From the sequence record NC_103192.1: a DNA stretch of 64,000 nucleotides, one strand, 5' to 3'. The notes beneath the pieces are model-generated. The model was not told where the DNA came from. It did not search any database and saw only the letters and a program-made list of their open reading frames with translations. Both the position numbers and the translations under genes were made by a program. This DNA comes from a phage. Below are positions 2,455 to 64,000 of the stretch, piece after piece (position 1 is the first letter of the stretch; each line of letters begins with the position of its first letter).

Positions 2455-2650
2455 ATCTCTCTCAGTACTCGATCTGTTTTTCATTTCAAAGATTGGATTT
2501 TCTGAAAATTTTTCTCGATAAATTTCTCAGTACTCGATCTGTTTTTCGTTTTCTGAATTGGATTTTCTGGAAATCGTTCCAGCTCTCGACCTGAAATTTT
2601 TGGGGACGAAATCGATTTTTCGTTTTCAGAAATGGATTTTTAAAATTTCT
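2455..2650. repeat. Tandem direct repeats, about 65-bp unit (ctcagtactcgatctgtttttc...ttggattttctg), 2 good copies plus 1 degenerate
   Basis: Near-identical copies readable at about 2462-2520 and 2527-2585; non-coding. Confidence 0.7.
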
Positions 2651-2789
2651 ATATGGGAATATTTTAGTGGATACTATTTTATAGGAAATTGTTACGGAGG
2701 GTAATTAGCATGCTAACTAAATTTATTAAATGCGAAAAGTTCTCATTTAGAATTTTGAATGATAATCATTCTCGTTTGCAGAATAACGG

Positions 2790-3260
2790 GCACCCCCGGT
2801 GATTGTCTCCCGGCCCCTGTTGCCCCGGCTTGTTATTATAGTATCACACAGGACAAAGAAAGCAAAGACTTTTTGCATAAATTTTTAAATGATAATGATA
2901 ACCGTTCTCATTTTATGCAGCGCCCATCCCCGGTGGTTGTCTCCCCCGTCACCGGTGCCTGCCGTCCTTTCGATAGGTATATTGTGCCACCTGGCGGGGC
3001 CGCTGTCAACACTTTTCAAAAAAAAAAAATTCTAACCTGATGCGCTAACCGTTGCAACCTGGCGGGGCCAGCCTGGCAGGTCCGCGCTATAAAGTAAGCA
3101 GCTACAGAAGAGGTACAAAAATGAAAAGTAATATAATCCCCTGGAAAATGTAGCGATCAATGCCGCTGAAGTTATCGCCCTGGTTGAAAAGGCTATGGCG
3201 GGAGCGTTGGAACATAAAGAAGAGTACGAAAAAATGGTGGTTAACCTGGCGGGGGGCGGC
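2790..3260. repeat. GC-rich repeated motifs (CCGGTGRTTGTCTCCC x2; ACCTGGCGGGG x3) in a non-coding tract
   Basis: Motif copies at about 2796, 2929, 2988, 3055, 3243; GC content far above flanking sequence. Confidence 0.6.
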
Positions 3261-3297
3261 AGGTGGATTCTATCATAAAAATAATTTAAAATAGTCG

Positions 3298-3327
3298 TTG
3301 ACAACAAGGTTAATCATGGTATTATTA
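3298..3327 (+). promoter_or_regulatory. Sigma70-like promoter
   Basis: TTGACA, 17-nt spacer, TATTAT-like -10, about 50 nt upstream of the 3377 gene. Confidence 0.5.
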
Positions 3328-3376
3328 CCCTACAAGGTGAACAACACCACACTAATTAACAGAGAGGATAAAAATC

Positions 3377-3574
3377 ATGAACGCCTACGGAATTAAAGTA
3401 CGTCGCAACACTCGCCAGGTGGTCACCGATCAAATGGTTTGCCGGGTGGATGTAACCATCAACAACGGGCAAGGCCTTTATAAATTCTGTCGCGGTCAGA
3501 GCTATACCCTGCAACAGCTTAATCGTTGCGCCCTGACAAAAGGTCAGATCAACCACTGGTTTAATAAAAAATAA
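3377..3574 (+). CDS. Hypothetical early protein
   Basis: SD agagaggat upstream of ATG; own promoter. Confidence 0.5.
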   Translation: MNAYGIKVRRNTRQVVTDQMVCRVDVTINNGQGLYKFCRGQSYTLQQLNRCALTKGQINHWFNKK

Positions 3575-3577
3575 ATA

Positions 3578-3606
3578 TTGACATGTAGTCTGAAACAAAA
3601 CATACT
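3578..3606 (+). promoter_or_regulatory. Sigma70-like promoter
   Basis: TTGACA, 17 nt, CATACT upstream of the 3639 gene. Confidence 0.5.
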
Positions 3607-3638
3607 GAAAGCACAAAAGGCACTAAGAGGATAAAATC

Positions 3639-4037
3639 ATGAAAACCACAACCTTTAATTTTGACAATGCTGACTTCTCTTTTTCTGATGTTAAAAGCTG
3701 CCGCCGTGATCGCGGATTCTACAAGGCCTATAATCTGGTTGGCCTGGACGATGATAATAATTTGCACGAAGTAGCGGAGATCCGGTACTATGCCGCCGCC
3801 AGCGGTAACACTCACTACTGCGTTTTTTGGATACACGACAACAAGAACAATAAGTACGGTTATACTGGCGGCAAGGCGAGCGGTCACGGTTATGATAAAG
3901 CTAACGCAGCACTTGAGAGCGCATTAAATGCTATGGGGATCACTGCCGACGGCTGGATCTACGAAGAAGGGTTTTTGTCGGCACTTGCTGACCACCTAGG
4001 CTATAAAAAGCACATTGTAACATGTGCCCACGAATAA
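3639..4037 (+). CDS. Hypothetical early protein
   Basis: SD aagaggat; 132 aa. Confidence 0.5.
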   Translation: MKTTTFNFDNADFSFSDVKSCRRDRGFYKAYNLVGLDDDNNLHEVAEIRYYAAASGNTHYCVFWIHDNKNNKYGYTGGKASGHGYDKANAALESALNAMGITADGWIYEEGFLSALADHLGYKKHIVTCAHE

Positions 4038-31092: not shown

Positions 31093-31584
31093 TTAGTCAA
31101 CCTGAACCCAACCGCCTGCTACCTTTTTAAACATTCTTTGGTTATCACTGCCTCGGAATGGTTTCTTGGTTGGTAAATCTTTTACATACTTTCCATCAAT
31201 GACGATATCAGCCAGTTTAAGAACATCACTAGAGATATGCTCAAATGTGAACCCAGTATACACAAGAATAGTTTTCTTGTCACCAAACTTTTCCTTAATT
31301 CTCCTCATAAGGTTGATAATATCTGGCTCATTATAAGTAGCCAAAGGCTCTCCACCAAGTAAAGAAATACCGCATACAGATTCATTGTCTAAATCCAACA
31401 AAATTTTCTGCAAATCTTCTTCGGTGAACTCTCTTCCTTTATCTTTTGACCAAAATGCTTGATTAAAGCAACCAGGACAAGCGTGTGGGCACCCAGATAC
31501 CCACAAAGCTGTCCTAATACCTGGCCCCTCGGTGTAAGATATCTCTGTATACCCGACAATATTCATACATACTCCGCATCGCAT
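31093..31584 (-). CDS. nrdG: Anaerobic ribonucleotide reductase activating protein (radical SAM)
   Basis: Cys cluster CPHACPGC near N-terminus; size and position next to nrdD. Confidence 0.75.
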   Translation of the reverse strand: MRCGVCMNIVGYTEISYTEGPGIRTALWVSGCPHACPGCFNQAFWSKDKGREFTEEDLQKILLDLDNESVCGISLLGGEPLATYNEPDIINLMRRIKEKFGDKKTILVYTGFTFEHISSDVLKLADIVIDGKYVKDLPTKKPFRGSDNQRMFKKVAGGWVQVD

Positions 31585-31731: not shown

Positions 31732-32667
31732 TCATTTACCGCAGATCTCTTTATACGCTGCTTCCACTATGCTGAACACCTCAGGCCTGTAGTAGAAGAA
31801 TTCGGTGCTACCATTAAATTTTACAGGAAAGTTTATTTTACACTTGTTGAAAATCTCGTGCACAGATTTTTCTACACTTAGCATGTTTTTAGTCGATCCG
31901 CTCCATGTTTTCAATATATGTAAATCATGTAGACCCGCGCCAGATGTATGTGCGCTTTTTAATATCTCATCCTTTCTATTATCAACACGGACGCTCACAC
32001 CTATCTTCATGAGTGTAGGCAATTCTAGATCATCAACCATGATGTAAAGTTTACCACAATCGTGGGATAAAAATCCACTTTTGGTGCATTTAGGACATCC
32101 TCTCCCTCCTAAATGCTTGGTAGGGGATTGACAGAAATCTCCATGGTCTGTGCAAACAATTGTAACCTTGATGTGTGAATTCACATACCTAACTTTAGAG
32201 TAATCATACTTGTTCCCGTGGACAGCCACAGCGTCCTGGATAAACTCTTCAGTGGTCTTTTTCATAGATCCGCCACATCCTGGACAGCCGTGACCACGCT
32301 TAAGGCTACCAGGAGTAGCTGACCATTCGTGGTTGCAAACTTTGCAACGACATAATACTTTATTACACCCTGTAGTGATCTCTTCTAATATTTCAATATA
32401 AGTATTTTTCTTCCCTATGTCCTCAACCCACTTTTCATGAGGTTTGGTTTTACTTTGTGCTATTTTTAGCTTCCTGCATTCAGGACACCCGCATTTTTGA
32501 TTTAGATGTATATCAGGTGTTTGGGCAAAGTGGGTGCCGCAGTGCTTACATATTATCTCCACTTTATCTTTACAGGTTTTATAGTCCACAAGAGAGTAGT
32601 CGTATTTATCACCATGTTTCTCTCTAGCCCTCCCTATAAATTCCTCCGTTGTCAGTCGTCTGGTCAC
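31732..32667 (-). CDS. Free-standing homing-endonuclease-like protein (tandem Zn-ribbon modules, T5orf172/GIY-YIG-like C-terminus)
   Basis: Two repeats of TTEEFI...HG.KYDYS.V.Y...C..HG; C-terminal KLYIMVD...KIGVS block; inserted between nrdG and nrdD. Confidence 0.4.
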   Translation of the reverse strand: MTRRLTTEEFIGRAREKHGDKYDYSLVDYKTCKDKVEIICKHCGTHFAQTPDIHLNQKCGCPECRKLKIAQSKTKPHEKWVEDIGKKNTYIEILEEITTGCNKVLCRCKVCNHEWSATPGSLKRGHGCPGCGGSMKKTTEEFIQDAVAVHGNKYDYSKVRYVNSHIKVTIVCTDHGDFCQSPTKHLGGRGCPKCTKSGFLSHDCGKLYIMVDDLELPTLMKIGVSVRVDNRKDEILKSAHTSGAGLHDLHILKTWSGSTKNMLSVEKSVHEIFNKCKINFPVKFNGSTEFFYYRPEVFSIVEAAYKEICGK

Positions 32668-32734: not shown

Positions 32735-33697
32735 TCAGCAACTACAACTTCCATAGTGCTTCACTCGCTCGATAACTTCCGCTTGCTTACCTGTGTTATA
32801 CGGCCTACTGTTCGGGCTGGAGAGATAGCCAGACACTCTTCGGATCACTGAGATATATTGTTCATCGTGGCATCCGCACGCAGGGCAGCAGAACCCTTTA
32901 GCTGTTGCACTGAACTCACCAGAGAAACCACACTTGAGACATTTATCCACAGGTTGGTTAATACCAAAATACATAATATGTTTATACCCGAAGTCAACAA
33001 GAGCCTCTAAAGCATCTAAGTTGTTTTTCAGATTTGGTGTCTCTATGTACCCAATGTTGCCACCAGAGGAGATCATAGCAAAACCTTCCTCATACTTCCA
33101 CTTATCAAAAGGTGAGCTATTGATCCATACTGGCTGGTGGAAACTGTTGGTGAGGTATTCATGCTCGTGCTTCAACACTTCAGGATATTCACGATCCAGG
33201 CAGGTTGCAGCCTTATAGCATAAACTCTCAGAAGGGGTGCCGTACAAGCTAAATGCTAGTCCACTTTCCTTCTTATATCGCTCACAAGCATCCTTCATGT
33301 GCTGAAGGATTCCAAGAGCTAAAGCCTTGTCACCCTCTCTGCCCAAAATCTGACAGGTTTCATACACACCAATATACCCAATACTGATGGAAGCGTACCC
33401 GTCATAGAAGAGTTTATCGATACTCTCTTCAGGATCCAGGCGAGCAAGAGCTCCTTCACACCACATGATAGGATTCTGCCCGGCCTTGGTGCCTTTCAGA
33501 CGGTTAACCCTTACAAGGTGAGATTCATATGCCAAATCCAGATACTCGTCAAGAACGGCAAAGAAATCAACACCTTCCGTCTTAGCTTTTGCCGCAATCA
33601 TTGGTAGGTTAAGGCTAACAACACCCAAGTTGAATCTGCCAAGGTATTTCTCCTCGCCTGTTACAGGGTCGCTATATTTCGATAAGAAACTTCTACA
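32735..33697 (-). CDS. nrdD: Anaerobic ribonucleotide reductase NrdD, exon 3 (glycyl radical domain)
   Basis: CRSFLS..NLGVVSLNLP and C-terminal RRVSGYL glycyl-radical motif plus Zn-ribbon cysteines align with E. coli NrdD C-terminus. Confidence 0.8.
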   Translation of the reverse strand, partial: CRSFLSKYSDPVTGEEKYLGRFNLGVVSLNLPMIAAKAKTEGVDFFAVLDEYLDLAYESHLVRVNRLKGTKAGQNPIMWCEGALARLDPEESIDKLFYDGYASISIGYIGVYETCQILGREGDKALALGILQHMKDACERYKKESGLAFSLYGTPSESLCYKAATCLDREYPEVLKHEHEYLTNSFHQPVWINSSPFDKWKYEEGFAMISSGGNIGYIETPNLKNNLDALEALVDFGYKHIMYFGINQPVDKCLKCGFSGEFSATAKGFCCPACGCHDEQYISVIRRVSGYLSSPNSRPYNTGKQAEVIERVKHYGSCSC

Positions 33698-34459
33698 CAT
33701 TATGTTCAAGGTGGTTCGCAAGGCCACCCCCGCACCTTTACGTGCTGCTGCATGTCCCCATGCAGATCAGACTATATCTTCACACTTAGTGTGTCTACCA
33801 TTTCGAGTGTCATCAGCTTACACCCTACACCGCTACATTCATCACGGTTAGTCGTTAGGCATTTCGTAACAGAACTCGTAATCATAGTTATTAGGTGCAC
33901 CACGTTTCAGGATAGCAGATATTCTTTTTCTATCTATTCCTAAAACATCAGCACAACATCTCAGACTCTTAAAGTGAATAACCACACCAGTTAATTTGTG
34001 GGTGGCTTTCACCCCGTGACATCTTGTGTAAAAAGCATAACAGTTGTTGTCGTATCCTTCTTGAGTATTGTCTGGGCAAGCTCCCCACTCAAGGTTGTAT
34101 ACGCTGTTATCTTTCCTGTTGTCACCTTTGTGCTTAACATATGGTAAATTGTCTGGATTTGGTAAAAACGCTTCAGCAACAAGTCTGTGAACCCTTAGGC
34201 AAACAGTCTTTTTGTTCTTGCGTATCCTGACAAGACGGTAACCTGTGTTTATCTCTTCCCACGAATGAATAATTCTTTCATTTTCGTATCGGGTGCAATA
34301 AACATTGCCCATCTCGTCAATTTCATAACCTTCAAAATCACGAATTTGTTTTCTCATTTCAGGACTCCTCTTAGTCAGGAGTTCTGTTACGTTTAGCACG
34401 GGATTGTCCGTTCTGGAGTTTCCCCGTTTAGATAGATTTTACATGAGCAGTTATAGTTT
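33698..34459 (-). mobile_element. Group I intron 2 in nrdD (contains HNH endonuclease ORF)
   Basis: Exon 2 ends ...SMG (codon ggt, terminal U), exon 3 resumes CRSF, restoring the conserved PMGCRSF block; 3' end carries AAGATATAGTC P7-like element and a P9 hairpin. Confidence 0.65.
33848..34399 (-). CDS. HNH homing endonuclease (intron-encoded)
   Basis: VKHKGDNRKDNSVYNLEWG HNH_3-type motif; N-terminal FEGYEIDEMGNVY module. Confidence 0.7.
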   Translation of the reverse strand: MLNVTELLTKRSPEMRKQIRDFEGYEIDEMGNVYCTRYENERIIHSWEEINTGYRLVRIRKNKKTVCLRVHRLVAEAFLPNPDNLPYVKHKGDNRKDNSVYNLEWGACPDNTQEGYDNNCYAFYTRCHGVKATHKLTGVVIHFKSLRCCADVLGIDRKRISAILKRGAPNNYDYEFCYEMPND

Positions 34460-34759
34460 ACCCATGCTTGTTACTTTGCCGTCTGTTGAACCTGTCACTT
34501 TTCTATTTAGCGGTACAGATACGAAGTCGGGATAAATCCGCTCTGCAGAGCATTCCAGAGCCAACCGTTTCAAATCATAGTTAGGATCCCCAGGATTCAT
34601 GTTGACACCCTCTTCTAGGAAGAACAGCACTTTAGGGAACACAGGTGTGATACGTTCTTCACCAAGACCCATTTTGTGGACTTTCAAGTAATTTTTGGTA
34701 ATCATTCTACCAAAGACCGAGGTATCCAGTCCTAAACTTAATGTGATGAATGGAGTCTG
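34460..34759 (-). CDS. nrdD: NrdD, exon 2
   Basis: QTPFITLSLGLDTS...ITPVFPKVLFFLEEGVNMNPGDPNYDLKRLALECSAERIYPD aligns with E. coli QTPFVTFGFGLGTS...AVFPKLVFAIRDGLNLKKGDPNYDIKQLALECASKRMYPD. Confidence 0.75.
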
Positions 34760-35556
34760 CTGTCTCCTCCCTGTGTTTCCACAGGGCCAGACTATCTCTT
34801 ACTCTACTTCAATAAGATAATAACCCTTTATTGTGAGATGCTTACCTTCGGCATTTCCTTCGATAGCCCTATGAACGTTACCTACGTTCAAATTTAAGGC
34901 TTTTGCACAGGCATAGAGTGAAGGATATTCACCAACCAAGGTTTTCCCTTTGTATGCCTGCACTTTCCTATAGCACTTACCTGGACAAAGTCCTGTTCGG
35001 AAAGCATGTCTCTTATTATCTTCCGGCAAAACCCACTCTAGGTTAGACGGATGATCATTCAATGTATTGCCATCTTTATGATTCACTTCCCAGTTTTCAG
35101 GGTCTTCTGGGACATCTGGCAAACAATACAAGGCAACAACCCTTGAGGTTTGGATTCGAATCTTTTTACCTTTGTGGTTGAAAGAGTACATATAACGGCG
35201 TTTAACATGCTTGTTACCTTTTCCATAACCTCCCCACAATATTGGGTGTAGCATTCCACGTTTTCCGTATACGTTTCCAACCTCATCAATCACATAGTTT
35301 GACTCTTCACCATTAAGAATGATCTTTTTCATAGAGCCTCTCCATTTCGAAGTTAGTATTTCAACTAACCCCTACACTACTTGGTTCAGAAATGTTTGTC
35401 AAGCATCTCTGCCTTTCGTTAGTCGTTACAACCGTTCCAACTCCTGTAAGAACTAGTCACGGGATTGGCGTAGCTTTCGCCTTAGCGTTCCCCGTTAGCC
35501 GGATTTACCGACCCCTCTTATGAGGTTAGGAGAGTTTTACAACGGCCAGTTTGTTA
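34760..35556 (-). mobile_element. Group I intron 1 in nrdD (contains HNH endonuclease ORF)
   Basis: Exon 1 ends ...SVNG then in-frame stop; exon 2 starts QTPF; intron 3' end has GAGATAGTCTGG plus hairpin; 5' part has GTTGTAACGACTAACG core-like element. Confidence 0.65.
34799..35332 (-). CDS. HNH homing endonuclease (intron-encoded)
   Basis: VNHKDGNTLNDHPSNLEWV HNH_3-type motif. Confidence 0.7.
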   Translation of the reverse strand: MKKIILNGEESNYVIDEVGNVYGKRGMLHPILWGGYGKGNKHVKRRYMYSFNHKGKKIRIQTSRVVALYCLPDVPEDPENWEVNHKDGNTLNDHPSNLEWVLPEDNKRHAFRTGLCPGKCYRKVQAYKGKTLVGEYPSLYACAKALNLNVGNVHRAIEGNAEGKHLTIKGYYLIEVE

Positions 35557-36417
35557 ACCGTTGACAGAAGTTAACGTATTGATTTGATAGAGCAAAGTCT
35601 GCATGCTGTCAAATACGTCTTTATCTGTCATTTGCATTGCAACAGTCTCAGCATCTGGCAACCAATGTTCCTGGCAAAATTTAAGGTTCTTCTCATAGGT
35701 CGCTTCAGCATACTGTGCCAGATAATGATCAATATGACTCATGGTCTGACCGCCATATTGAGCACTAGCTACTGCACTAGAGATTTGGCTAAGGATTGTT
35801 GTTGCAACCCCTATTGACTTCGGCTTACTGACATGGGCGTTACCAATGTTGAATCCGTTTTCCAACATATCTGGATAATTTACCAAACAACAGTTTGTTA
35901 ACGGACTGATCAAATAGTCAAGATCATGCACATGGATGAAGCCTTTGTTGTGCTCTTCGGAGACACGGTCTGGCAGGATCTGTGTTGATGCAAGGTGTTT
36001 GCTAAGGATGCCTGCAAGCAGGTCACGATGAGTATGCACATGATTAGTAGGCTTATTTGCGTTTTCTTTTGTAAATTCATCACAAGTACGATCCAAGAAG
36101 CCACTAATATCGGCAAGCAGTTTTCCACCTGCCTCTCTGTTATTATCTCTTGTCTGTCTATACTGGATGTATTCTCTGGCTGCACATTTTAAACCCATAT
36201 CCATAAGAGCATCTTCAACAAGGATATGGATATTTTTTACAGAGATCGTGCACTGGTCAGTTGGCAGATTGTTGGCAACAACTTCATTAACCGCACAGGC
36301 AATCCGGTAAGCTTCTTCTTCAGTATGTCCAGACTCAAGTAAGGCGGACTCTGCCGCCTTGATCACCTTAATTCCGTTATAGACCTCTTCTCTACCGTCC
36401 CGTTTTACAACTTTCAC
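35557..36417 (-). CDS. nrdD: NrdD, exon 1 (ATP-cone and N-terminal core)
   Basis: MKVVKRDGREEVYNGIKVIKAAE ATP-cone start; NENANK...RDLLAGI, HDLDY, PKSIGVAT blocks match E. coli NrdD. Confidence 0.8.
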
Positions 36418-60600: not shown

Positions 60601-60675
60601 GCCACCCAGTGCCCTGTTAGCTTAGTGGATAAAGCAGCGGCCTTCTAAGCCGTTGACACTGGTTCGAGTCCAGTA
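60601..60675 (+). tRNA. tRNA-Arg (anticodon TCT)
   Basis: Hand-folded cloverleaf: acceptor GCCCTGT/ACGGGGT, anticodon loop CTTCTAA, T-loop TTCGAGT, CCA encoded. Confidence 0.7.
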
Positions 60676-60815
60676 CGGGGTGCCAAGTTCTTTTTAATGT
60701 AGCTTACTTTAGCAGAGTAAATCTTCGGCAAGTGGCGGTAACCACTTTACCGATACCTCATAGTTAGTGGTGAGAACACTAGCTATTTTAAAAAGAATTT
60801 AAATATTAGTATTTA

Positions 60816-60903
60816 GGTGAGTTAATTCCGTAGGGGTAGCGGGGCAGACTGTAAATCTGTTATCATTGCGATTCGGGTGGTTCGACTCCATCACTCACCA
60901 CCA
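60816..60903 (+). tRNA. tRNA-Tyr (anticodon GTA), long variable arm
   Basis: Acceptor GGTGAGT/ACTCACC, anticodon arm CAGACTGTAAATCTG as in E. coli tRNA-Tyr, T-loop TTCGACT, CCA. Confidence 0.7.
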
Positions 60904-61017
60904 AATTTATATTTTTAAATGCATAAATCATACAGATAATGGCATTGATATTTATCGTCGTTTATACTAGTCACTAACTGCTCGAAAATCAGTGTCATTA
61001 TCAGTATTGTTTATAAA

Positions 61018-61108
61018 AGAGGGTAGGGAGCAATGGTGCTCAAGCGGTCTTGAAAACCGTCCCGTTGAGGATGACTCGATGATGGTTCGATTCCATTATC
61101 CTCTGCCA
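61018..61108 (+). tRNA. tRNA-Ser (anticodon TGA), long variable arm
   Basis: Acceptor AGAGGGT/ATCCTCT, anticodon arm CGGTCTTGAAAACCG, T-loop TTCGATT, CCA. Confidence 0.7.
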
Positions 61109-61206
61109 TATTGTTGACTATGTAATTAAGCGAAAGCCGGAAGCAGAACCGGATTATCAAATGTTACAGTCGTCATCGCCGACTAGCAACATGGTCAACA
61201 TACTGA

Positions 61207-61305
61207 GCTAGGTAAGCCCTTTGGCAAGGGCGAGGATTTTTAATCCTGAAAATAGACGAGGTAGTCGTTGAATACATAGGTGGTTCGATTCCATCACCTA
61301 GCACC
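61207..61305 (+). tRNA. Atypical tRNA-like element (type II shape, irregular anticodon arm)
   Basis: Acceptor GCTAGGT/ACCTAGC, D-arm GCCC/GGGC, T-loop TTCGATT, long variable arm; anticodon region is either a 5-nt loop or a 4-bp stem with TTTTTAA loop; no CCA. Confidence 0.35.
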
Positions 61306-61310
61306 TTTTT

Positions 61311-61386
61311 GCTGATGTAGCACAATTGGTAGTGCAATTGATTTGTAATCAATAGGTTGCAGGTTCAAGTCCTGCCATCAGCACCA
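61311..61386 (+). tRNA. tRNA-Thr (anticodon TGT)
   Basis: Acceptor GCTGATG/CATCAGC, anticodon loop TTTGTAA, T-loop TTCAAGT, CCA. Confidence 0.75.
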
Positions 61387-61387
61387 T

Positions 61388-61462
61388 GGCCCTGTAGCTG
61401 GAAGGTTCAAGCAAGCGACTCATAATCGCCAGACGGTGGTTCAATTCCACCCAGGGCCACCA
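61388..61462 (+). tRNA. tRNA-Met or Ile2 (anticodon CAT)
   Basis: Acceptor GGCCCTG/CAGGGCC, anticodon loop CTCATAA, T-loop TTCAATT, CCA. Confidence 0.75.
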
Positions 61463-61473
61463 AATAATAAATA

Positions 61474-61550
61474 CTCCGCGTAGCTCAGCTTGGTAGAGTG
61501 CCTGATTTGGGATCAGGAGGTCGAGTGTTCGAATCACTCCGTGGAGACCA
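61474..61550 (+). tRNA. tRNA-Pro (anticodon TGG)
   Basis: Acceptor CTCCGCG/CGTGGAG, anticodon loop TTTGGGA, T-loop TTCGAAT, CCA. Confidence 0.75.
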
Positions 61551-62370: not shown

Positions 62371-62654
62371 GAGTTGCTACACTATTTATTGTGTGCTTGT
62401 TATTATGTGGGTGTGCAACCAGTGTTGAGAAAGAATACAAGATTGACCCTCCAGATGTAGGAAGGTTGATTGTTAAACCCCCAGAAGGTGCTATGAAACC
62501 ACCTGCTAAAGCTATGCCTTTGAAGAAAGGTGCGCCAGATGCAGTAAATTCTGGCATTATGAGGGATAATAATCTGTCTTGTAGCAATGATAGAGCTAAA
62601 TTGATCATTTTGCAAGACTATATTAGAACACTTTTTCCAAAGGAGAGAGGTTAA
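62367..62654 (+). CDS. o-spanin-like lipoprotein (Rz1-like)
   Basis: Signal with lipobox-like LLCGCAT; proline-rich mature part. Confidence 0.55.
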   Translation: MRVATLFIVCLLLCGCATSVEKEYKIDPPDVGRLIVKPPEGAMKPPAKAMPLKKGAPDAVNSGIMRDNNLSCSNDRAKLIILQDYIRTLFPKERG

Positions 62655-63079
62655 TGTCTAAGATTTACGGACCGTGTTCTGAAAAGCAGAAGATGATCCT
62701 CGAAAACGATGCAGATATTTTGGTAATCGGCGGTGCCGCAGGGTCTGGCAAGTCGTTCCTCTTGCAGTTGATGCCACTTAAAATTATTGATGACCCCCAC
62801 AGCTCTGTGGTTATGTTCCGAAGAACAACCCCACAGTTGGAAGGTGAGGGTGGGCTATGGCCTAAAGCAGTAGCTATTTATAGCGATCTGCCTGAAAACA
62901 TTAAGCCAAAGTTCAGAGAGAAGGATCATAAGTTCATTTTCCCACGGTTTGATCCGGGCACTGGCAAGTGGGATAGAAGCAAAAAGGGAGCTGTTGTAAA
63001 ATACTGCCACATGGAGTATGTACAAGATAAGCTTAACCATCAAGGGCTTGAGTACACCATGGTTTGCTTTGATGAGGGT
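62654..63079 (+). CDS. terL: Terminase large subunit, exon 1 (ATPase N-terminal part)
   Basis: Walker A GGAAGSGKS, Walker B MVCFDEG; reading frame then hits a stop where the intron begins. Confidence 0.7.
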
Positions 63080-63398
63080 TAATTTGTAGCTCTCGTAAAA
63101 CCTCCCTAATTGCGGGGAAATCTTTATTATTGACACCACCAACCTGTCATGGTAACATGACAGAGGCTTCGAAGAGAGATCGAAGGTATGGTAACAGTGT
63201 GTTAATTTAGATAATCCGCAGCGAAGCATCCGAAAGGATGAACGTTCAACGACTAGTCGAAAGACGTAGAATCAAGCGATTCGAAACGGGAGGATAAGCG
63301 GTTGTTGTCGCTTATAAGATATAGTCTGGTCTGCATGGAGACATGCAGCTGCCTGAAAATGGCGGGGCAAGACTAGCGACCTTGCCCGAACATAAACG
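63080..63398 (+). mobile_element. Group I intron (ORF-less) in terminase large subunit gene
   Basis: GTTCAACGACTAGTC and AAGATATAGTC core elements (P7-like), P9-like hairpin; exon 1 ends on U of ggt; frame resumes TQFEWEQIDYLMSRL. Confidence 0.6.
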
Positions 63399-63716
63399 AC
63401 GCAATTCGAATGGGAGCAGATAGACTACCTAATGTCTCGTCTGCGATCTCAGTCAAAGTATCCATCAAGAATGGTTATCAGCTGTAACCCCGACTCAGAA
63501 CACATGCTTGCCAAACTGATTAGGTGGTGGTTGGACGATGAAGGGTATCCAGATCCGGAGAAATGTGGTAAGAAAAGATATTTTATCCGACGCGACGGTG
63601 AATTTATCTGGGGAGACTCTAAGGAAGAGTTAATAGAGAAATACACCACGGTTAACGGACTAGGTGTGGAGATCAAGCCAAGACCGTTGTCATTCTCGTT
63701 CATAGGCGCAACCATT
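63399..63716 (+). CDS. terL: Terminase large subunit, exon 2
   Basis: Continues the ATPase domain (RMVISCNPD region) in frame after the intron; ends at a stop followed by a second intron. Confidence 0.6.
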
Positions 63717-64000
63717 AAATGATAGTGGCTTCGTGCAGAAATGCACGTCGAATAACTTCGTTAATTGCTGGAAAATCCTTTATGAAAGGACAATCAGCAG
63801 CCAAGCCTGAATATTCAGGAAGGTTCAACGACTATCCTGAGAGGGAGTAGGGCGCAAGCTTATGGCGCTCGAAAAGCGAAGCACCCTGAGATGGGTGGTG
63901 ATATAGTCTACTCTGCATGGTAACATGCAGCGGCACGTAATGGTGCGGAGGGTGGTGTTGCGACCACCCTTGAATATAAGGATTCGATAATCCTGTCTGC
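63717..64000 (+). mobile_element. Second group I intron in terminase gene (3' end beyond window)
   Basis: GTTCAACGACTA and GATATAGTC elements and a P9 hairpin closely resembling intron 1 and the nrdD intron. Confidence 0.55.

Follow-up and report, generated by a model that had tools for sequence, protein, structure and literature searches.

The window, the whole 64,000-nucleotide stretch of phage DNA that was analyzed (NC_103192.1), is from an rV5-like Vequintavirus phage. It holds the gene order nrdA-nrdB-grx-nrdD, which is shared with rV5, and nrdD is divided into three exons by two inserts that each contain an HNH gene. The features of this locus are listed below.

36692–36414, minus strand: glutaredoxin gene, upstream of nrdD
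36417–35557, minus strand: nrdD exon 1, 287 codons; ATP-cone and N-terminal part of the NRDD domain
35556–34760, minus strand: intron 1 (group I, IA type), 797 nt; terminal G at 34760
35332–34799, minus strand: HNH gene 1, 177 aa, I-HmuI-like, in loop L8 of intron 1
34759–34460, minus strand: nrdD exon 2, exactly 100 codons, QTPF...VTSMG
34459–33698, minus strand: intron 2 (group I, IA2-like, core of T4 sunY/td type), 762 nt; terminal G at 33698
34357–33848, minus strand: HNH gene 2, 169 aa from ATG, I-HmuI-like, in loop L6a of intron 2
33697–32735, minus strand: nrdD exon 3, 320 codons plus stop; starts CRSF
32667–31732, minus strand: free-standing gene with DUF4379 (treble-clef zinc finger) and T5orf172, in the nrdD-nrdG interval
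31584–31093, minus strand: nrdG, the activating radical-SAM enzyme

A previous sequence-only reading had proposed that the three nrdD pieces are contiguous exons, and both their coordinates and the junction residues were confirmed here on the minus strand by using T4 and rV5 NrdD as references. Exon 1 starts with a GTG codon overlapping the glutaredoxin stop and ends with ...NTLTSVNG (AAC GGT). Joining the three exons gave a 2124-nt reading frame for a 707-aa product, which spans residues 1–562 of 562 of Pfam NRDD in a profile search (E 7e-160) and aligns end-to-end with T4 NrdD (1H78), unbroken across both junctions (E 3e-168). The joined gene is equal in length to the uninterrupted rV5 gp108, with zero gaps, 93.2% nucleotide identity, and 20 amino-acid differences. 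Furthermore, a comparison with the intron-less nrdD of related phages, which had been suggested as a check, was made by querying with 598 nt across the junctions expected after splicing, and a contiguous 598-nt match was obtained in many intron-less relatives, including rV5. Given these matches, the boundaries are exact and not a chance pattern. Intron 1 is located inside the conserved NGQTPF motif (NG|Q), and intron 2 (MG|CRSF) is located directly 5' of the first codon of exon 3 (Cys), which aligns with the catalytic Cys290 of T4 NrdD. Invariant sequence such as the NGQTPF motif or the Cys290 codon is a typical homing site.

The last base of the exon preceding each insert is U, as was noticed before, and it pairs with G in the 7-bp P1 of each intron; both inserts terminate in G. 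In-frame stop codons open both inserts, as GGT TAA in intron 1 and GGT AAA CTA TAA in intron 2. Inteins are often found in ribonucleotide reductase genes (PMC3653736), which raises the question of whether the inserts are inteins or, alternatively, group II introns. The stop codons, however, are located 1–4 codons past both 5' junctions; intein blocks, reverse transcriptase, and domain V are all absent from the inserts, which do contain the group I elements P7, J8/7, and P9. Both possibilities were hence discarded. The P7- and P9-like elements noticed earlier were found to be parts of complete P3–P9 group I cores, which could be mapped in both inserts. The elements of intron 1 were assigned as follows.

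35546–35540, minus strand: guide sequence GCCGUUG
35534–35529 (5' strand) and 35343–35338 (3' strand), minus strand: P3
35525–35514 and 35512–35498, minus strand: two extra hairpins
35495–35459, minus strand: P4–P5
35425–35420 (5' strand) and 34801–34788 (J8/7 plus 3' strand), minus strand: P7
35411–35387, minus strand: P7.1
35372–35349, minus strand: P7.2
35336–35331 with 34807–34802, minus strand: P8
34786–34769, minus strand: P9

P1 of intron 1 is formed between CAACGGU and GCCGUUG with U.G at the splice site, and it covaries between exon and intron, with a C-G pair here and an A-U pair in phage CM1 (AAACGGU/GCCGUUU). The helices P3, P5, P7.1, P7.2, P8, and P9 are held by differing sequences in six members of the intron 1 family from four lineages, among which P4 and P7 are invariant. 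These covarying members are from E. coli, Vibrio, and Bacillus phages; the family also includes uncultured viral contigs, and it occurs in nrdD at two sites as well as in a DnaE-like and a clamp-loader-like gene. Energy-only folding of ORF-less forms gave the same helices as the comparative model. A departure from the textbook arrangement is that two hairpins are located between the P3 5' strand and J3/4 throughout this family. An Rfam-style P3, whose 5' strand is placed directly before UAA-P4, was rejected because the strands are noncomplementary in the window. P3 was instead assigned to CUCUCC/GGAGAG, which is complementary, covaries in the six members of four lineages, and is also formed in the Vibrio phage F100 intron together with the extra hairpins. 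No useful account of these hairpins was obtained in a literature search ('P3.1/P3.2') or in the Bacillus cereus intron survey. For intron 2, the following elements were assigned.

34448–34442, minus strand: guide sequence GCUCAUG
34437–34431 with 33799–33794, minus strand: P3
34427–34398, minus strand: P4–P5
34391–34381 with 33875–33865, minus strand: P6a
33854–33849 (5' strand) and 33780–33768 (J8/7 plus 3' strand), minus strand: P7
33848–33829, minus strand: P7.1
33825–33805, minus strand: P7.2
33793–33781, minus strand: P8
33765–33748, minus strand: P9
33745–33732, minus strand: P9.1
33728–33710, minus strand: P9.2

P1 of intron 2 is CAUGGGU/GCUCAUG, again with U.G at the splice site, and minimum-free-energy folds gave the nested helices of both introns.

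The Rfam covariance search, which had also been suggested as a check, gave a divided result. A scan of the whole window at the curated gathering threshold of RF00028 (50 bits) reported zero introns in nrdD. Below this threshold both inserts align to the full model, with 32.9 bits for intron 2 and 27.7 bits for intron 1 (E 4.5e-6 and 1.6e-4, respectively). ORF-less homologues of intron 2 at the same site scored 70.4 and 70.5 bits and pass the cut-off, so that the low score of intron 2 is ascribed to the ORF inside it. The ORF-less homologues of intron 1 scored 29.3 and 27.4 bits and fail, while its core covaries; on this comparative evidence, the low score of intron 1 is that of an atypical family possessing a full covarying group I core. 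Splitting of RF00028 hits by endonuclease loops and a poor representation of phage introns in the model were reported (PMC11878797), and a locus of a T4-like Mosigvirus (L006) that matches the intron 2 core by BLAST has no Rfam hit at gathering. The gathering miss in nrdD, formally the covariance-model rejection that had been named as a refuting result, was not taken as a refutation, because it is explained by the lowered-threshold search and the ORF-less homologues. One might alternatively ascribe the 27–29-bit range of the intron 1 family, the non-standard insertion beside J3/4, and a P10 of only 3 bp to a ribozyme that has decayed and ceased to splice in one intron, most plausibly intron 1, leaving nrdD as a pseudogene in this phage. 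Aerobic cultures probably do not require nrdD, so that an intron unable to splice could be retained for some time. The core helices are nevertheless all intact and covarying, J8/7 and P7 fit the consensus, and intron 1 is 97–99% conserved across 27 records. In addition, the reading frames of exons 2 and 3 have stayed open, and they share 93% identity with rV5, most of the substitutions being synonymous. We consider such decay very unlikely.

An HNH_3-type ORF had been proposed for each insert. This was verified for ORF 1, which scored 29.4 bits against Pfam HNH_3 (cut-off 24.8), but not at the Pfam level for ORF 2, which fell below the cut-off with 20.1 bits. Both ORFs match PHROG 59 (3.5e-26 for ORF 1 and 4.5e-32 for ORF 2) and align over the whole enzyme with I-HmuI (PDB 1U3E, 174 aa; 3.9e-4 and 6e-8), which is encoded in the DNA polymerase intron of Bacillus phage SPO1. 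The N-terminal domain, the HNH motif, and a C-terminal NUMOD-like helix-turn-helix are common to the three proteins, although the sequence identity is low and the target gene differs. The Shine-Dalgarno sequence of HNH gene 1 (GGAGAGG) is the P3 3' strand of intron 1, its ATG lies within the P8 5' strand, and its final codons comprise the P8 3' strand. The ATG of HNH gene 2 is preceded by a strong Shine-Dalgarno sequence held in a hairpin (34382–34364; −12.4 kcal/mol, z −3.9), and at its 3' end this gene overlaps the 3' strands of P6a and P6, continues through J6/7, and reaches P7, with the stop TAA within GACUAA. As both ribosome-binding sites are buried in RNA helices, endonuclease translation and ribozyme folding probably exclude each other in both introns.

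The inserts could also be homing-endonuclease insertions that do not splice, such that the NrdD fragments reassemble or the gene is inactivated. In Aeromonas phage Aeh1, the NrdA gene is split by mobE and the protein is formed from reassembling fragments. The stop codon that opens each insert and the three nrdD pieces with possible internal starts given by ORF finders are consistent with such a case, and one HNH 'intron' of Certrevirus CB7 failed to splice (PMC7344957), whereas HNH-containing introns of this sister genus were observed to splice by RT-PCR (PMC7344957). The nrdD pieces, however, have no proper starts: the ORF for exon 2 opens 18 codons into the exon, and that for exon 3 starts at a GTG within the intron. 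Moreover, the endonuclease genes are surrounded by full ribozyme cores that are kept through compensatory changes, and introns without an ORF are present at the same sites. A non-splicing insertion has no reason to keep such cores, and we regard this explanation as very improbable, only slightly less so than ribozyme decay.

Comparison of about 118 relatives revealed empty sites, ORF-less introns, single-intron genomes, and double-intron genomes. The ORF-less forms are 257 nt for intron 1 and 251 nt for intron 2, and endonuclease-deleted intron 2 in relatives retains the last ~13 codons of the gene. A 3' exon tract, comprising the first ~38 nt of exon 3 and carrying ~14 substitutions, is linked to intron 2 in all 17 of 17 records, and the nrdD substitutions relative to rV5 cluster at site 2. 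The occupancy polymorphism and the co-converted exon tract support mobility of the introns, being patterns that would be expected as footprints of homing. Identical or near-identical introns are present in the Vequintavirus genomes of HMD-6, WalterGehring, EmilHeitz/Bas49, FFH2, FV3, phita32, and 'Campylobacter phage' C2; intron 2 of HMD-6 is 100% identical and intron 1 of WalterGehring is 99.4% identical. While most relatives have none or one, phita32 and C2 have both introns together, as here, and the best double-intron record shares 96.7% identity overall with the window. In the record of the BASEL phage Bas49, the same nrdD is annotated as a joined CDS that skips the endonuclease gene. Judging from these GenBank records, the two-intron arrangement of nrdD is not new. 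No description of nrdD introns of rV5-like phages was found in the literature searched, and no introns other than those of the terminase are mentioned in the rV5 paper.

Taken together, we are highly confident that nrdD contains two independent mobile group I introns that are predicted to splice, each with the gene for an I-HmuI-type HNH endonuclease predicted to serve in homing, as the sequence-only reading had proposed in its main point. Each intron is predicted to fold as a ribozyme after transcription, so that pairing of the guide with the final seven bases of the exon would place U.G where cleavage occurs. The 5' splice site would then be attacked by exogenous guanosine, and the 3' splice site would be set by the terminal G. 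Exon ligation, as deduced from these structures, would generate the mRNA for the normal 707-aa NrdD. If an intron-less relative infected the same cell, its empty nrdD site would be nicked or cut by the predicted endonuclease. Repair templated by the genome with the intron would then transfer the intron and the adjoining exon sequence, a process known as homing.

Among the closest known systems is the nrdD (sunY) intron of T4/U5, which occupies the same host gene. Its core is homologous to that of intron 2, with ~80% identity over P7–P9 and an identical guide-sequence stretch, GCUCAUGUAAAAUCU, and both possess P7.1 and P7.2 and lack P2. The assignment of intron 2 to the T4 nrdD intron site was rejected, since the translated U5 record places the T4/U5 site elsewhere, at AYEY|EVN (GAGT|AT), which matches neither site of the window. 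It lies 11 codons upstream of site 1, with intron 2 ~100 codons further on. The guide GCUCAUG is unaltered but pairs with different nrdD sites: in T-even phages the site is UAUGAGU, and in the window, in phAPEC8-like phages, and in Vibrio phage F100 it is CAUGGGU. The endonuclease gene is located in L6a in intron 2 but downstream of P9 in U5, whose ORF looks GIY-YIG-like, whereas that of intron 2 is I-HmuI-like. The nrdD of F100 is in three or more pieces with two HNH-containing introns, of which the second shares with intron 2 the MG|CRS site, the guide sequence, and the P6a endonuclease location. The first is structurally of the same family as intron 1, but it is inserted at QFG|G and has a 309-aa endonuclease in L6. 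It is conceivable, though we consider it unlikely on this comparative evidence, that intron 1 represents an undescribed IA-type structural subclass and that the site pattern of intron 2 arose as from reverse-splicing transposition. Multiple group I introns within a single gene of nucleotide metabolism or replication, in part containing HNH genes, were also reported for Twort nrdE and orf142 and for Certrevirus CB7 genes, at codons of conserved residues and with splicing experimentally shown (PMC7344957, PMC3653736); their genes, sites, and intron lineages all differ from those of the nrdD introns.

The nrdD introns leave the current understanding of group I introns and homing unchanged. The Vequintavirus nrdD locus brings together, in compact form, naturally occurring stages of the homing cycle, containing empty, ORF-less, endonuclease-bearing, and endonuclease-deleted states, co-converted tracts, and possible excision scars, in which the same ribozyme backbones were invaded by endonuclease genes in differing loops. 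Gene callers cut this nrdD into 'nrdD_1/2/3' fragments and 'hypothetical proteins', and Rfam defaults report nothing; the correct annotation is a single joined CDS with two introns.

The gene between nrdD and nrdG had been described as a third, free-standing endonuclease-like gene, which is a fair description. It contains DUF4379 (46.1 bits) and the GIY-YIG-related T5orf172 (27.2 bits; cut-off 20), and matches PHROG 681 'endonuclease' (6e-62); the homing role is putative. No remnants of this gene were found by tblastn in rV5 gp109-111. It is missing from rV5, phita32, EmilHeitz, and FV3, so that the double-intron phita32 differs from the window in this respect, while other relatives have it and CM1 has a 47% paralogue. 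Most likely it represents a mobile nuclease gene, the third at this locus and a free-standing one, putatively assigned from its domains and distribution.

The source of the window is a Vequintavirus, an rV5-like myovirus of E. coli, in which the gene order nrdA-nrdB-glutaredoxin-nrdD-...-nrdG is the same as in rV5. About 300 phage records matched the 3.9-kb nrdD region in a database sequence search, and the best full-length matches were "Campylobacter phage" C2 (96.7%) and Escherichia phage phita32 (95.8%). Approximately 25 unannotated records (MG0656xx; C2, A135, A142, and others) are labelled as Campylobacter jejuni phages; their nrdD is 95–97% identical to that of rV5-like E. coli phages, and this host label looks doubtful. 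The sequence-only reading had claimed that nrdD is split into three pieces by two introns, each with an HNH_3-type gene, and that a further endonuclease-like gene lies before nrdG; all of these features were found, as follows.

36417-35557, minus strand, nrdD exon 1, ending ...NTLTSVNG
35556-34760, minus strand, intron 1 (797 nt), containing ORF 1 (34799-35332)
34759-34460, minus strand, nrdD exon 2, QTPF...VTSMG (100 codons)
34459-33698, minus strand, intron 2 (762 nt), containing ORF 2 (33848-34357)
33697-32735, minus strand, nrdD exon 3, starting CRSF
31732-32667, minus strand, free-standing third gene with a DUF4379 treble-clef zinc finger and a T5orf172 domain, matching PHROG 681 "endonuclease"

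The joined exons comprise 2124 nt, equal in length to and colinear with the uninterrupted rV5 nrdD (gp108), to which they align gap-free with 93.2% nucleotide identity and 20 differences in 707 amino acids. The predicted spliced junctions, used as a 598-nt query, gave a contiguous 598-nt match in rV5 and numerous other relatives whose nrdD lacks introns. The joined product spans the whole Pfam NRDD model, together with an ATP-cone and a glycine-radical domain, and was aligned to the sequence of the T4 NrdD crystal structure through both junctions, which lie within the conserved NGQTPF and MGCRSFLS motifs. The predicted exon-intron boundaries are exact. Exon 3 opens with Cys388, which aligned with T4 Cys290, the proposed thiyl-radical cysteine. 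Homing sites usually lie in invariant coding sequence, and since the junctions fall at these motifs and at Cys388, both introns are located in such sequence.

The group I assignment, which had been partly inferred, was checked in Rfam: both inserts aligned to the full group I intron model (RF00028) on the correct strand at a relaxed threshold (32.9 bits, E 4.5e-6 for intron 2; 27.7 bits, E 1.6e-4 for intron 1), but a scan of the window at the curated threshold reported nothing in the nrdD locus. Each alignment must jump an ORF of approximately 500 nt. Covariance-model hits split by endonuclease loops, and the under-representation of phage introns in current models, were described in a 2025 survey of Bacillus phage introns (PMC11878797). 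An ORF-less 251-nt intron at site 2 (between exons 2 and 3) of an rV5-like IMG/VR contig scored 70.5 bits, the endonuclease-deleted intron 2 of the phAPEC8-like phage AMO3598 scored 70.4 bits, and the low score of intron 2 is an artefact of its ORF. Its core is of the T4 td/sunY type, composed of P1, P3, P4-P6a, P7, P7.1, P7.2, P8, P9, P9.1, and P9.2 without P2, and P3, P7.1, and P8 exhibit compensatory differences against AMO3598 and U5. In the rV5-like uncultured contig IMGVR_UViG_3300010279_000001, both introns occur ORF-less at the same two sites (257 nt, 1728-1984; 251 nt, 2285-2535), the second with a simple, sunY-like P6a. The intron 2 core also matched 190 contiguous nt downstream of gene 49 in the T4-like Mosigvirus KAW3E185 (MK373782, 2501-2690), where nrdD is unannotated; Rfam at the gathering threshold gave no match at that locus.

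Since the ORF-less 257-nt forms of intron 1 still score low against RF00028 (29.3 bits for phage CM1, 27.4 bits for IMGVR_UViG_3300010279_000001), its family was analysed directly, using the window intron, CM1/IMGVR_UViG_3300010279_000001, one intron from Bacillus phage S4-2 that interrupts a DnaE-like gene, two IMG/VR contigs, and, from Vibrio phage F100, the first of its two nrdD introns. All members share one layout: P1, the P3 5' strand, two short hairpins, UAA, P4-P5-P4', P6, AACGACUA (P7), P7.1, P7.2, GAAAY, the P3 3' strand, P8, AAGAGAUAGUC (J8/7 and P7'), a single P9, and a short tail with a terminal G. P3, both hairpins, P5, P7.1, P7.2, P8, and P9 are formed by different sequences in different lineages, and P1 covaries between exon and guide sequence (C-G in the window, A-U in CM1). 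P4 and P7 do not vary across the family and hence give no covariation evidence. Energy-only folding of the ORF-less forms gave the same nested helices. The shared layout, covarying helices, and these folds argue that intron 1 is a genuine group I intron, of predicted IA type. The hairpin pair that separates the P3 5' strand from J3/4 departs from the textbook arrangement and probably explains the poor Rfam score of this family, whose atypical and poorly modelled architecture may be mildly novel.

Both ORF products are I-HmuI-like and align to the full length of I-HmuI (PDB 1U3E); they match PHROG 59 "HNH endonuclease" and Pfam HNH_3 plus an I-HmuI NUMOD-like domain, and are 29% identical to each other. 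ORF 1 sits in loop L8, where its Shine-Dalgarno sequence GGAGAGG is the P3 3' strand, and its ATG lies within P8, whose other strand is made by the last codons of the ORF. ORF 2 sits in loop L6a, with its Shine-Dalgarno sequence inside a predicted 6-bp hairpin (−12.4 kcal/mol, z −3.9), and its 3' end provides the P6a and P6 3' strands, J6/7, and part of P7. Elsewhere, the sunY-type core of U5 carries its ORF downstream of P9, and the intron 1 family in S4-2 and F100 carries it in L6. That the same ribozyme backbones hold endonuclease genes in different loops points to independent invasions, a pattern already known.

Intron 2 shares its core type and guide sequence with the T4 sunY intron. The U5/T4 nrdD intron splits AYEY|EVN, 11 codons upstream of site 1 (between exons 1 and 2), whereas intron 2 lies elsewhere, at MG|CRS, a site common to phAPEC8-like phages and Vibrio phage F100 (OZ195714). 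F100 nrdD has two HNH-containing introns: the first, structurally a member of the intron 1 family, occupies a third site, QFG|G, and the second lies at MG|CRS. Phage nrdD therefore has no fewer than four different group I insertion sites. The annotation divides the downstream F100 exon in two (2629-3288 and 3289-3669), perhaps because of a frameshift. A 2013 survey (PMC3653736) had ranked nrdD as the ribonucleotide reductase gene most often split, Bas49 nrdD in the BASEL collection is annotated as a join around an endonuclease gene, and in Certrevirus, the sister genus, introns with HNH genes do splice (PMC7344957). The two-intron reading of nrdD is correct and well delimited but ordinary: it adds one more case to a familiar class, and GenBank already contains near-identical copies. 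Apart from the intron 1 architecture, the only mildly novel point is that a sunY-type ribozyme occupies a second nrdD site, where its guide sequence finds a matching target.

All occupancy states were present among approximately 118 Vequintavirus records containing this part of nrdD: empty sites (e.g., rV5 itself), intron 1 with its endonuclease (27 records), its ORF-less 257-nt variant (at least 12), intron 2 with its endonuclease (17 to 28, varying with the query), ORF-less intron 1 together with intron 2, and both endonuclease-bearing introns (C2 and phita32). At site 1, intron-bearing alleles have GGT|CAG against GGG|CAA in rV5, which provides the U.G pair with its U and P10 with a third base pair. 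Substitutions against rV5 peak in the first 38 nt of exon 3, where approximately 14 positions differ from the rV5-type sequence (NDLE to SDPV), and this tract accompanied intron 2 in 17/17 records found with the junction query. Judged from these alignments, it is a classical co-conversion footprint of homing. Escherichia phage V18 (NC_041937) has an unannotated, intron-free nrdD, yet with the intron-2-type exon tract; it lacks 2 nt precisely at site 1, has 2 extra nt precisely at site 2, and has lost one further nucleotide, changes that could represent imprecise intron loss, repair scars of endonuclease cutting, or sequencing errors.

The third gene is absent from rV5, phita32, EmilHeitz, and FV3; in CM1, its position is taken by a 47% paralogue. 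The adjoining last ~180 nt of nrdD (32759-32938, minus strand) carry 44 substitutions per 180 nt against rV5, compared with ~2–5 per 60 nt elsewhere, including several amino-acid changes in the C-terminal zinc-ribbon region. This diverged end may be a co-conversion tract of the T5orf172 gene as a putative free-standing homing nuclease. The nrdD-nrdG interval is mosaic among relatives: the 5' ~380 nt of nrdG (31093-31584, minus strand) match EmilHeitz at 88% without a blastn match to rV5, and its 3' end matches both.

Two further group I introns in the window, at 63070-63348 and 63706-63930 (plus strand), pass the Rfam gathering threshold (84.2 and 92.7 bits) and split a terminase large-subunit gene (exon 1 ORF, 62654-63082; middle ORF, 63432-63722); within the window, an endonuclease ORF is apparently absent from both inserts. 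The rV5 genome paper reported terL in three segments and described only the terminase introns. Six tRNA genes were detected by Rfam in a cluster at 60611-61547 (plus strand), upstream of the lysis/terminase region.
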